Below, piece after piece: positions 9,900 through 26,568 of a stretch of DNA of 26,568 bases. The stretch is taken from positions 1 to 26,568 of IMG/VR virus record IMGVR_UViG_2724679237_000010. One strand, 5' to 3'. The stretch's first letter is position 1. Each line of letters begins with the position of its first letter. Under the pieces are notes generated by a model that did not search any database, had not been told where the DNA came from, and worked only from the letters and a program-made list of their open reading frames with translations. The DNA comes from a virus. Its lineage: Duplodnaviria; Heunggongvirae; Uroviricota; Caudoviricetes. A program made the translations under genes and the position numbers.

Positions 9900-10416
9900 A
9901 GTAGTCGCTCTCGTGTTCTGCGCCGATATCTGGCGCTATTCCGACGTATATATTTTTCAGGGTTCCCTGTGAGGGATAATCGAAAATATCGGGACCAACG
10001 CCTACAACCTGCGTGAACGACACGCACTGAACTGAATGCGAACCGACTGACTGTCCGTTTTTAATCCAGTCACACGGTTCCGCGTCGCTGAATTTTGCCG
10101 GTTTAGTTCCGGGACCGAACATTCGCCCATTAATCCAGCTCGTCATATAGAGCGCTGCATTCTGCGATTTCAGTCCGTACTGATCAGCCGCAAACTCCCG
10201 CAGCAAATACAAATTACACGACAGCTCGACTGACTGAATTGAACCCGACACAGGCTCATCACTCTGTGACCAGTTGCTGATTTCCAGGAACAGAGCTGGC
10301 GTTTCAAATCCAGCCGGAATTTCCGGATAAATACCGAACGTTTTGATGAACGGTATTTGTAAAACAGCGCCTTTAACGCAATCTAAATATTCGTCAAATG
10401 CATCCAGTCCGCTCAT
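9880..10416 (-). CDS. Hypothetical virion protein (possible tail completion / sheath-terminator analogue)
   Basis: 178-aa ORF between the head-tail joining genes and V, overlapping V by 20 nt. Function assigned from position only. Confidence 0.45.
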   Translation of the reverse strand: MSGLDAFDEYLDCVKGAVLQIPFIKTFGIYPEIPAGFETPALFLEISNWSQSDEPVSGSIQSVELSCNLYLLREFAADQYGLKSQNAALYMTSWINGRMFGPGTKPAKFSDAEPCDWIKNGQSVGSHSVQCVSFTQVVGVGPDIFDYPSQGTLKNIYVGIAPDIGAEHESDYYGPIGR

Positions 10417-23947: not shown

Positions 23948-24589
23948 TTATTTATCACTCCTGTAAATTGAAATTAACCATTTTCTAATCGTCGAGGCTG
24001 CAGGTGGGTCAGAGTATTTCGCCACAAAAATACCGGATATGTACTGCACACCACGCGATAATGGCGCTGTCGGGTTTTCAGTAAAAAAACGATCAGCCAG
24101 TTCAATGGCTTCGCTTTTTAATCTGTGCTGTGGTCGTCCTCCGCCCTTTGTTCCCAGGTATCGCGCCAGTTGTTTGAAACGGTAGGCAATGATTAACGGT
24201 CGCATCATCATATTGAAAAAATCTCGGGCATCATTGTCAGCGCCTTGCGCTATCAACAGTGCAAAAAACAGATACGGGATTGTGTACACTTCAGGGGATA
24301 TACGAATCCGTTCACAGGTTGGTGGAGCCAATTTAATAAGTAAGTCAGCCAGCGAGTTCCCCTTTTCTCCACGTTTGTAATAGCGATACAGCGGCCCGAT
24401 ATCGAGTTTACTCACATCGATTTCAGGATGCCCGGCAACGGCTGTACGTACCTCTTCTGCCAGAGCGTCAAATATTGCCCCGGTCCGTTCAAGATAGAGC
24501 CTCCGGGTCGAGCCGCGATCATCCAACGCCCGTAACATATCTAACCGGCTAACGAAAGTTTCAGGCCAGTCCTCATAGAAAGTTTTCAT
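23948..24589 (-). CDS. Hypothetical protein, first gene of the leftward transcription unit
   Basis: Start placed at ATG 24589 (MKTFYEDW...) with GAGGT 5 nt upstream. The longest ORF begins at a GTG at 24625. No recognisable domain. Confidence 0.6.
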   Translation of the reverse strand: MKTFYEDWPETFVSRLDMLRALDDRGSTRRLYLERTGAIFDALAEEVRTAVAGHPEIDVSKLDIGPLYRYYKRGEKGNSLADLLIKLAPPTCERIRISPEVYTIPYLFFALLIAQGADNDARDFFNMMMRPLIIAYRFKQLARYLGTKGGGRPQHRLKSEAIELADRFFTENPTAPLSRGVQYISGIFVAKYSDPPAASTIRKWLISIYRSDK

Positions 24590-24832
24590 AATTACCTCGA
24601 ATAATAAAAATTGCATTATTTGCACAATTTATTATTCGTTTTCACGCCGCTGAGTTCTATAAAAAAGAAAAAACCTCCGAGGCAGGGTTTTGTTATGGCT
24701 CGTTAAATCATCATCCAACTTTTTAGACTGAACGGTGATACTTGCAAATATTTGAAAATATGGGCTGGAACCCTATCTTATGATGTGCCTGGTAATTTAT
24801 ATTGTTGGGTCTTTATATCATGAGGAATCACT

Positions 24833-25066
24833 ATGGGTACGTTAGGCAACCAGCCGTGCAGAAGTCGTTATGAGTTCGATGATTTTAATTTAGCCAATCG
24901 AGCTGCGGCTCTTACTAAGTTAGCAAAAGAAACTGGTGTATCGGTGGATACCTTAATCAAACTTGAAATTGCTATGCAACTGAATCGGCTCAACTCCATC
25001 CTTATCGAAAACGGTGACAAGATGGACGAGAATCTGGCAGGTATTGGCGAGATACTGCAGAAGTGA
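24833..25066 (+). CDS. Small putative DNA-binding protein (HTH, MerR/excisionase-like)
   Basis: 77-aa ORF with GAGGAA 7 nt before the ATG. The segment LTKLAKETGVSVDTLIKLEIAM fits a helix-turn-helix pattern (..GVS..TL..). Confidence 0.5.
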   Translation: MGTLGNQPCRSRYEFDDFNLANRAAALTKLAKETGVSVDTLIKLEIAMQLNRLNSILIENGDKMDENLAGIGEILQK

Positions 25067-25071
25067 GAGTA

Positions 25072-25091
25072 GCCCCTCTTCTGAGGGGTTG
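25072..25091 (+). terminator. Hairpin terminator candidate after the HTH gene
   Basis: CCCCTC-TTCT-GAGGGG, extendable to 8 bp, followed by TTGCACATTT (weak U-tract). Confidence 0.4.
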
Positions 25092-25373
25092 CACATTTAA
25101 AATATTAAGGGCGGTCTTCTTCACGTACACAGTCACCTGGTCGAATCGTTCACGCATACTGAGTACAAAAAATCTCAACGATAAGATCAGGTTAGACCTG
25201 TATTTTTCAGAAACATATGGACGCCTAAAAAAACACTAAACTCATGATTATCATGTATGTTTTTACTGGAAACATTGAACCATCCACAATACAGCGTAAA
25301 AAGCAAGCAATTCACAAGATTTTAAAGTGATTTATCTGGAAGACTTTACTACTAACAGTTAATATCGTACCAG

Positions 25374-25392
25374 AAGTGCAGAATTTGCACTT
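25374..25392. promoter_or_regulatory. Operator-like palindrome AAGTGCA-GAATT-TGCACTT upstream of the ImmA-like gene
   Basis: Perfect 7-bp inverted repeat with 5-nt spacer, nested inside a second inverted repeat CGTACCA...TGGTACG (25366-25410), about 75 nt upstream of the start at 25465. Confidence 0.35.
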
Positions 25393-25464
25393 TTACAGGA
25401 ATGTGGTACGGAACATGCTGTCTATATTTCAACCAATAATCGTAATGCAGTAACTGGAGGAGCT

Positions 25465-25953
25465 ATGGCTACCAACCCAAGAGAGCACGCCCGGCGAGTG
25501 CTGGACACGTTCTGGTGCGGGCGTGGTTTCCCTGTTGATCCAGCGAAAATTGCTCACGACATGGGATTAGATGTTTTTATTACCGATCTTCCTGGGAAAG
25601 TTTCTGGCGCACTGATTAAACAAAAAGATCAAGATCCAGCGATCTTTCTAAACAGTGATGACAACAAAGTTCGTCAACGTTTTTCATGTGGGCATGAGTT
25701 GGGGCATTACATCGCCCGACAAGCATCGCATAGCGATGAATATGAGTACGTTGATTTACGTGGCGAAACCGCAAGCGCCGGAACGCATCCTGATGAAATT
25801 TTTGCGAACAAGTTCGCAGCAGAACTTCTGATGCCGGTTGATGAGGTCAGAAAACTGCACGCTGACGGTCAACCAAGTTATATAATGGCGCATTATTTTG
25901 GCGTATCTGACGATGCGATGACTTATCGTTTAAAGAACTTGAGGTTGGGGTAA
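25465..25953 (+). CDS. ImmA/IrrE-family zinc metallopeptidase (HExxH; COG2856 / DUF955-like)
   Basis: 162-aa ORF with GGAGGAG 6 nt before the ATG and the motif FSCGHELGHYIARQ (HExxH). Size is typical of ImmA/IrrE-type peptidases. Confidence 0.8.
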   Translation: MATNPREHARRVLDTFWCGRGFPVDPAKIAHDMGLDVFITDLPGKVSGALIKQKDQDPAIFLNSDDNKVRQRFSCGHELGHYIARQASHSDEYEYVDLRGETASAGTHPDEIFANKFAAELLMPVDEVRKLHADGQPSYIMAHYFGVSDDAMTYRLKNLRLG

Positions 25954-25962
25954 CGCTTTAAA

Positions 25963-26568
25963 ATGCCATCGGATGACGATTTTAACAGCCGTTTCAAACA
26001 GGAAGTTGCACGCCGACTGAAGGATTCCCTCAACCTACACCGTCAGTTAGCAGAAGAGGTTGAACCGGAGGATGATGAAACTCCGGTTCAGTCTCCTGAC
26101 GAAGCTTCACCTCAGCCAAAGATTTCGCACGCCCCCAAAAAAACGGCTGTCCGTATTCGCGGAATAGCCAGAAAAAGAGCTGCCGAAGCTCGCAAAATGG
26201 CTGTAGCTGCGTCTAGCAAAAGAATTCCAACTGCTACCCCCTCTCAACAAGTCACCCGTACTGAGAGTAAAATATTGACCGAGTTCACATCTGTGAAACA
26301 GGTGAATTCACTTGATACCGAGCATGAGCGCAAACAACTCAACAACAAAGATTTTGAAGCAGAAATCGCTCTAAAAAAACGATACGGAAAATGGTTCCTG
26401 ATTATCCTTGCTTGCCAACTTCTGATAATGAATGGTGTATTTATTGCCGACGGCGCAGGTACGCTGGAATTTGAGGATTTAACACTACAGTTGTACATGG
26501 GCGGTACTTTGACAGAGGTATTCGGCCTCGTGCTGGTCGTGACAAAATACCTTTTTAAACGCAAGTAA
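25963..26568 (+). CDS. Membrane protein with charged N-terminal region and C-terminal two-helix hairpin
   Basis: 201-aa ORF. The first ~145 aa are highly charged and low-complexity; the C-terminus has two hydrophobic helices (WFLIILACQLLIMNGVFIA and LTEVFGLVLVVTKYLF). The stop codon is the last three bases of the window. Confidence 0.6.
   Translation: MPSDDDFNSRFKQEVARRLKDSLNLHRQLAEEVEPEDDETPVQSPDEASPQPKISHAPKKTAVRIRGIARKRAAEARKMAVAASSKRIPTATPSQQVTRTESKILTEFTSVKQVNSLDTEHERKQLNNKDFEAEIALKKRYGKWFLIILACQLLIMNGVFIADGAGTLEFEDLTLQLYMGGTLTEVFGLVLVVTKYLFKRK

Follow-up and report, generated by a model that had tools for sequence, protein, structure and literature searches.

Described relatives of the peptidase and membrane protein pair

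In the NetFlax analysis, the ImmA protease domain was identified as node D25, which serves as a hub antitoxin in defense systems of the RosmerTA type (Ernits et al. 2023, PMC10440598). The toxin-antitoxin (TA) partners in these networks are described as swappable, and the antitoxin RmrA as "often" carrying an N-terminal Xre helix-turn-helix (HTH) domain (PMC10440598). One validated system of this type is the RmrA_D25/RmrT_D5 pair of Gordonia phage Kita. Its toxin, RmrT_D5, rapidly stops translation, transcription, and replication and depolarizes and permeabilizes the membrane of Escherichia coli, and the pair protects against a few myoviruses of the BASEL collection (Bas54 and Bas60 according to the legend of Fig. 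5, which differs from the text of section 11) (PMC10440598). Here, we compare these systems with a locus at the end of a 26,568-nucleotide (nt) stretch of viral DNA (IMG/VR record IMGVR_UViG_2724679237_000010, the whole of which we call the window) that belongs to a lambdoid prophage of E. coli. Positions 25465-26568 hold a gene for a zinc peptidase followed by a gene for a membrane protein, and we consider it likely that together they form a RosmerTA-type module of two genes, a toxin-antitoxin system against phages that this prophage carries as a moron. The parts of the candidate module are as follows.

25465-25953, plus strand: rmrA-like gene for a 162-amino-acid (aa) zinc peptidase of the ImmA/IrrE (M78) family, which stands alone and is predicted to be the antitoxin
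25954-25962, plus strand: 9-nt spacer between the peptidase gene and the membrane gene, read from the sequence
25963-26568, plus strand: rmrT-like gene for a 201-aa membrane toxin candidate, proposed from homology, hydropathy, and a low-confidence AlphaFold2 model

Both proteins have a counterpart in the Kita genome (KU963257, accession taken from PMC5559632), where gp32 (178 aa) and gp33 (119 aa) overlap by 4 nt in the moron region upstream of int. The window peptidase is 43% identical to Kita RmrA_D25 (gp32, YP_009301393) over 157 aa (E=1e-41). A profile of the membrane protein family, made from 69 sequences, matched RmrT_D5 (gp33, YP_009301394) at 96.8% in hhalign (E=2.7e-10, 79 columns), over a region that covers the juxtamembrane helix and both transmembrane (TM) helices, and the hidden Markov model (HMM) of the same family scored gp33 at 1e-13 when the open reading frames (ORFs) of all loci were searched with hmmsearch. 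PADLOC gave the same pattern for Kita RmrA as for the window peptidase, with capP at ~1e-25 and RmrA models at 1e-12 to 1e-15. Since both proteins are homologous to those of Kita, the pair in the window is a homologue of a characterized RosmerTA system, and the impression from a first, sequence-only reading of this DNA that the pairing was an undescribed one does not stand. Judged by its sequence, the pair is a widespread Enterobacterial member of the RosmerTA D25:D5 type and not a new kind of system.

The similarity to the Kita system extends to the gene order and tight coupling, to a stand-alone M78 peptidase of ~160 to 180 aa free of an HTH, to a small toxin in which two TM helices form a C-terminal hairpin, and to a moron setting in a temperate phage (near int in Kita). 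The two systems differ in the phylum of the host and in the toxin, to which the E. coli version adds a conserved N helix and a linker of ~75 aa (201 versus 119 aa). Kita RmrA matches PF06114 only and has no HTH; considering that it is a validated antitoxin, the HTH seems to be typical of the RmrA family rather than defining for it. Canonical RosmerTA (Millman et al. 2022) and the PD-lambda-2-type Xre-peptidase TA systems likewise set an M78/ImmA peptidase antitoxin beside a variable toxin and follow an anti-phage TA logic, but the window toxin is unrelated to the RmrT models of PADLOC.

The peptidase, the membrane protein, and their possible mode of action

The upstream gene had been read as coding for an HExxH peptidase of the ImmA/IrrE kind, and this was borne out. 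The 162-aa protein matched Pfam PF06114 (Peptidase_M78) with an E value of 7.7e-18 and 64.9 bits (cut-off, 22) as well as phrog_87 ("metallo-protease"), and its HExxH motif is H77-E78-L-G-H81. In an alignment of 11 peptidases from very different loci, H77, H81, and E111 were invariant and E78 was found in 10 of them, so by its sequence the protein is a true M78 enzyme with the zinc ligands and the catalytic Glu intact. The best PADLOC match was capP (E=2.4e-25), restricted to profile positions 3 to 151 of 242, together with a series of RmrA models (best E=5.8e-12) that were matched only in their central peptidase part (~166 to 266 of 363); no Pfam HTH was detected in the 162-aa peptidase. As the capP and RmrA profiles are both matched over the peptidase part only, the protein is a bare peptidase domain. 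The nearest solved structure by sequence is that of CapP (7T5T, E=1.7e-4), and the peptidase fold and active site are those found in the CapH/CapP, DdrO/IrrE, and ImmR/ImmA systems. CapP is built with a central linker and, at its C terminus, a GAF domain (10.1101/2022.04.27.489752); in contrast, the window peptidase ends at residue 162, without the HTH-like linker and GAF domain of CapP/IrrE.

The membrane gene begins 9 nt after the peptidase gene, as had been noted from the sequence, a spacing that points to an operon with tight coupling of the two genes. The description of its product as a charged region followed by a C-terminal membrane hairpin also holds. The N-terminal part of the 201-aa protein is charged, and the hydropathy profile contains two hydrophobic segments (~143-163 and 175-197) corresponding to a C-terminal two-helix membrane hairpin. 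In an AlphaFold2 model built with 18 homologues, residues 4-32, 119-164, and 172-198 are helical and those from ~33 to 118 are disordered. As a whole, the model is of low confidence, with a mean predicted local distance difference test (pLDDT) score of 61.7 and a predicted template modeling (pTM) score of 0.27, the membrane-proximal helices reaching pLDDT values of ~71 to 84. No Pfam, PADLOC, or NCBIfam family matched the protein, phrog_5346 (function unassigned) being the only family that did. However sparse its annotation, the family is large: an exhaustive phmmer search with the 201-aa protein returned 301 cluster representatives at E<=1e-3, most of them 100 to 170 aa long and aligned via the C-terminal 90 aa, that is, the juxtamembrane helix and the hairpin. 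Identity to the Enterobacterial homologues averages 76% over the C-terminal 91 residues; the values for the N helix and the linker are lower (36% and 9%), and the length of the linker varies from 12 to 112 aa among these homologues. A tblastn search of GenBank phages with the membrane protein gave no match, no solved structure was found for the toxin family, and a literature search by WP accession retrieved no mention in main texts or in the NetFlax supplements.

By analogy with Kita, the downstream gene would code for a small inner-membrane toxin similar to RmrT_D5, in which the conserved juxtamembrane helix and the two-TM hairpin would oligomerize and depolarize or permeabilize the membrane. 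The RmrA-like M78 peptidase would keep this toxin harmless in the lysogen, probably through contact with its cytoplasmic N helix and linker, which it would bind and/or cleave. When certain phages infect the cell, this neutralization might break down, and the freed toxin would lead to membrane collapse and to an aborted infection. For the E. coli pair, toxicity, depolarization or pore formation, partial neutralization, and defense are all properties that we carry over from the Kita homologue. Neutralization could proceed by cleaving or binding the N-terminal region of the toxin or by handing the toxin to ClpXP, an option hinted at by a different Rosmer-type module, that of E. coli E101, which makes clpP essential and has no known phage link. 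The sequence-only reading had proposed a damage- or infection-sensing switch controlling a membrane effector. The effector half of that idea survives, an abortive-infection or defense effector being the best reading, while a role as a transcriptional switch is not supported, as the peptidase of the Kita homologue is an antitoxin.

The layout of the toxin is also compatible with the opposite relationship between the two proteins, in which a phage- or damage-sensing peptidase cuts the linker, removes an autoinhibitory N helix, and frees the hairpin in a gasdermin-like manner, a logic not far from that of the sequence-only reading. A conserved N helix, a disordered linker of 12 to 112 aa, and a very conserved hairpin would be the arrangement of a cleavable pro-form, the catalytic residues are kept in 10 of the 11 aligned peptidases, and ImmA, IrrE, and CapP are signal-activated proteases (10.1101/2022.04.27.489752). 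However, the Kita toxin is toxic alone and RmrA lowers its toxicity. Another RosmerTA system gives phage protection and its delta-rmrA mutants were not obtainable (10.1101/2022.05.11.491447), and in Pectobacteriaceae with a RosmerTA system, rmrA is an essential gene. As homologous toxins need no partner to be toxic, and as rmrA was essential or could not be deleted wherever this was tested, we consider activation of a pore by the peptidase unlikely. Furthermore, family members of 119 to 135 aa have almost no linker, the peptidase is devoid of the GAF sensor domain of CapP/IrrE, and in one locus described below (L019) a Panacea antitoxin takes its place. If cleavage did activate the toxin, the pair would be a minimal bacterial protease-gated pore, and the variable linker, with its 9% identity, would be an arms-race interface with phage triggers or inhibitors.

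Returning to the RosmerTA assignment, several observations weigh against it. The match to RmrT_D5 is profile-based, has 24% identity, and lies in a short, hydrophobic, and compositionally biased region, and the Kita protein, at 119 aa, has nothing that corresponds to the 110-aa extension at the N terminus of the E. coli toxin. None of the PADLOC toxin models matches the window toxin (none matches Kita RmrT either). Canonical RmrA proteins, of ~360 to 400 aa, have an Xre HTH at the N terminus and an extension at the C terminus, whereas the window protein consists of the peptidase domain only. The E. coli pair is known here from sequence alone. Even Kita RmrA neutralizes its toxin only partly, and modeling did not yield a complex of the two (pDockQ of 0.05; PMC10440598); hence, direct neutralization by the peptidase is not firmly established even in Kita. 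Finally, in a distant paired peptidase (L012, 608-1120) the HExxH motif is replaced by HMISH, with loss of the catalytic Glu but retention of both His residues and the third ligand. This protein may be a non-catalytic antitoxin variant, in which case catalysis may not always be needed for neutralization.

Joint distribution of the two genes

The loci examined came from Klebsiella, Enterobacter, and Serratia, from an E. coli variant with a 155-aa protein, and from metagenomic members at 29 to 42% identity, to which we added the genomes of E. whittamii, Leclercia, and Buttiauxella (a genome contig scan, 3 loci) and three IMG/VR viral contig sets that include low-GC gut phages. All were scanned with HMMs built from the peptidase and membrane families, and many of the resulting 52 loci are redundant copies. 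An M78 peptidase gene (coding for ~160 to 190 aa) lies directly upstream of the membrane gene and on the same strand in 50 of the 52, which is the co-occurrence to be expected if the two genes belong together, with a spacing of -20 to +12 nt across the paired loci. The pair occurs across phyla, in Enterobacteria, in low-GC gut phages, and in an actinophage. Of the two exceptions, one (L057) is a locus cut by the end of its contig.

The other exception, L019, has a SocA/Panacea antitoxin gene (PF13274, E=3e-20) upstream of P0188, a distant homologue of the toxin. With M78 in most loci and Panacea in this one, the toxin family pairs with two known "hub" antitoxin domains. In membrane PanTs, the N-terminal region is charged and the TM helices are C-terminal; these toxins depolarize membranes and form pores (Kurata et al. 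2022, PMC8832971). The likeness of the window toxin to the membrane toxins of PanAT (E. coli STEC O31 WP_000019185.1 and Bartonella WP_077993242.1) is by description only, and the systems share the Panacea partner of P0188; the difference is that the window antitoxin is M78 and not Panacea PF13274. The Panacea-paired relative fits both the partner-swapping networks and the description of membrane PanTs.

The position of the pair varies widely. It was found at a tRNA-Ser att site next to int, between antiterminator and lysis genes, after a holin/endolysin cassette of Gram-positive type and, in the window, in the nin region. The pair therefore moves as a unit among unrelated prophage moron sites, and the conserved unit is two genes. 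The three-gene cassette that had been outlined from the sequence is not retained, as the last two genes alone travel together.

TA modules on mobile elements are often addiction modules, and the pair could in principle serve to stabilize the prophage, or to exclude superinfecting phages by blocking DNA entry, with neither abortive infection nor phage-triggered release of the toxin. The E101 module mentioned above would be in line with this, as would the narrow defense conferred by the Kita pair, which is limited to a few BASEL phages. On the other hand, the pair sits at prophage moron and defense hot spots, and the RosmerTA systems tested so far protected against phages, so we see an addiction or exclusion function as improbable.

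If the RosmerTA assignment is right, two common prophage genes labeled "hypothetical" acquire a function that can be put to the test; these genes are also present in prophages of Klebsiella, Enterobacter, Serratia, and Salmonella and in many gut phages. Since PADLOC v2 has no model for the toxin, annotation with this tool will probably miss the module. The pair would also be a system native to E. coli for studying how a bare M78 peptidase neutralizes a membrane toxin and how infection releases it.

A separate observation concerns a Serratia prophage with the pair, in which a gene with an Acb2/Tad1 hairpin domain (L008, 9651-9932) lies ~4 kb downstream of the pair. This domain belongs to a family of anti-CBASS and anti-Thoeris sponges.

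The upstream region and the prophage setting

The window contains three plus-strand ORFs in this part of the prophage, at the coordinates given by the sequence-only reading, and the larger phage ORFs upstream of them, Q, lysis, and head genes among them, are all on the minus strand, as that reading had it. The DNA is AT-rich, as had also been remarked, with a GC content of 43% from 24626 to the end and 38% in the intergenic stretch against 48.6% in the whole window. Ahead of the peptidase gene there are the following features.

24833-25066, plus strand: 77-aa ORF (phrog_5550), a neighboring small prophage gene outside the module
25069-25092, plus strand: terminator-like hairpin directly after the 77-aa ORF (10-bp stem, -19 kcal/mol, z=-3.4)
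25175-25464, plus strand: proximal upstream region, in which a promoter belonging to the pair itself probably lies, ~97% conserved in E. whittamii

The first of the three ORFs had been taken for an HTH protein. No HTH was matched in Pfam or NCBIfam, and the AlphaFold2 model of the 77-aa protein (pLDDT 82) is a two-helix hairpin formed by residues 17-34 and 38-76, the latter a 39-residue helix, for which a Foldseek search of the PDB returned nothing with E<5. The ORF is absent from every other pair-carrying locus examined. The E. whittamii locus has a 99% identical peptidase, but unrelated DNA has taken the place of ~500 bp that include the 77-aa ORF; all that remains is ~290 bp directly ahead of the peptidase gene, which match at ~97% and contain a 78-bp insertion. 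Conversely, a homologue of the 77-aa ORF with 53% identity was found in another prophage, where neither a peptidase gene nor a membrane gene is close by. The hairpin that follows its stop codon was not equaled in stability by any of 200 shuffled sequences, and there is a weak second terminator-like site at 25188-25200. Taken together, its absence elsewhere, its replacement, the solo homologue, the lack of an HTH, and the hairpin after the stop make the 77-aa ORF a separate small gene.

These data bear on the proposal, made from the sequence, that the peptidase cleaves a partner HTH repressor. As a full alternative, the peptidase would act as an ImmA-type anti-repressor in an induction switch, cleaving either the 77-aa protein or CI, and the membrane protein would be a superinfection-exclusion or holin-like passenger. 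ImmR/ImmA, DdrO/IrrE, and CapH/CapP are precedents within the family, capP is the best PADLOC match of the peptidase, and the 77-aa ORF contains an HTH-looking stretch, LAKETGVSVDTLIKLE. However, the 77-aa protein is modeled as two helices with no HTH family or fold match, a strong hairpin divides its gene from that of the peptidase, and it is unlinked to the pair elsewhere. No HTH gene was found beside the pair in the window or in the other loci examined, and no CBASS genes were found around the cassette. Thus, in contrast to CapH/CapP and DdrO/IrrE, the window has neither a partner HTH repressor nor a regulated CBASS, SOS-like, or integration operon, and the partner of the peptidase is a membrane toxin.

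The genome of strain SK1144 shows where the immunity functions of such a prophage lie. There, head, terminase, lysis, Q, DUF1364, and DUF1367 genes are on one strand and the cassette is on the opposite one; beyond the cassette come three further accessory genes, the replication genes, and then the immunity region (CI-like, Cro-like, and YdaT), ~10 kb off. This distance, and the occurrence of the pair in very different prophage types and positions, are unlike those of an immunity component and set it apart from the ImmR/ImmA switch. We regard an anti-repressor function as very improbable. The canonical immunity repressor pair of a known phage group, which the sequence-only reading had named as a possible refutation of an effector role, was considered as well and is ruled out by this context and by the mobility of the pair.

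As to the leader, described earlier as ~400 bp long and packed with palindromes, the length is right (25067-25464, 398 bp) but the excess of palindromes was not confirmed. Inverted repeats with stems of at least 6 numbered 6, versus 2.7 +/- 2.0 in dinucleotide shuffles (a fraction of 0.09 of which reached the observed value), and with stems of at least 7 there was 1 versus 0.74. Rfam gave no match in the intergenic stretch, and no upstream DNA conservation was seen among the Klebsiella, Enterobacter, Serratia, and 155-aa E. coli loci beyond the ribosome-binding site (RBS), GGAGGAGCTATGGCT. A structured or conserved 400-bp leader was rejected on these three grounds. No consensus sigma-70 site was called in the proximal upstream region. 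The part conserved in E. whittamii does contain an inverted repeat, AAGTGCA-N5-TGCACTT (25374-25392), followed by TTTTAC and located ~70 nt upstream of the peptidase start. The hairpin at this repeat (25372-25393) has a 9-bp stem, -10.2 kcal/mol, and z=-2.95, and it could be an operator or an attenuator.

The 77-aa ORF belongs to a tiny family (phrog_5550) confined to Enterobacterial prophages and has its own Shine-Dalgarno sequence and terminator. The invariant parts of the family are the N terminus, MGTLGNQ, and the C-terminal half, LEI-MQLNRLNSILIE-GD--DENLAGIG. The gene behaves as an independent, swappable mini-moron. Divergent from it, between the 77-aa gene and DUF1367, is an ORF of 213 to 225 aa (23948-24625, minus strand; phrog_5215) for which searches of Pfam, NCBIfam, and PADLOC gave nothing. 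In E. whittamii (L002, 3901-4574), tblastn matched this ORF in two pieces, which suggests a frameshift there.

The region 24600-26568 was matched in 453 of 5,426 complete E. coli genomes, most of them with at least 99% identity, and it was chromosomal in all. In strain AR_451 (NZ_CP030337.1, 1672096-1674840), the matched region is cut in two by an insertion of IS1 (annotated as "IS1 family transposase"). The sole GenBank phage record with a match is ON470624.1 (Escherichia phage vB_EcoM-705R4, 27,112 bp), at 25759-27112; this record stops inside the cassette, where the peptidase gene ends, and the membrane toxin gene is thus missing from it.

A remnant of the toxin gene was detected ~3.3 kb downstream of the intact gene, between genes of the LprI family and ORF6N. 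It is 75 nt long (L001, 17315-17389) and corresponds to the last 25 residues of the membrane toxin with 92% identity, which accounts for the two match places found per E. coli genome. It resembles the scar that recombination would leave of a second or former copy, and the remnant is also present in E. whittamii (L002, ~10076-10203) and in four IMG/VR loci (L032-L035).

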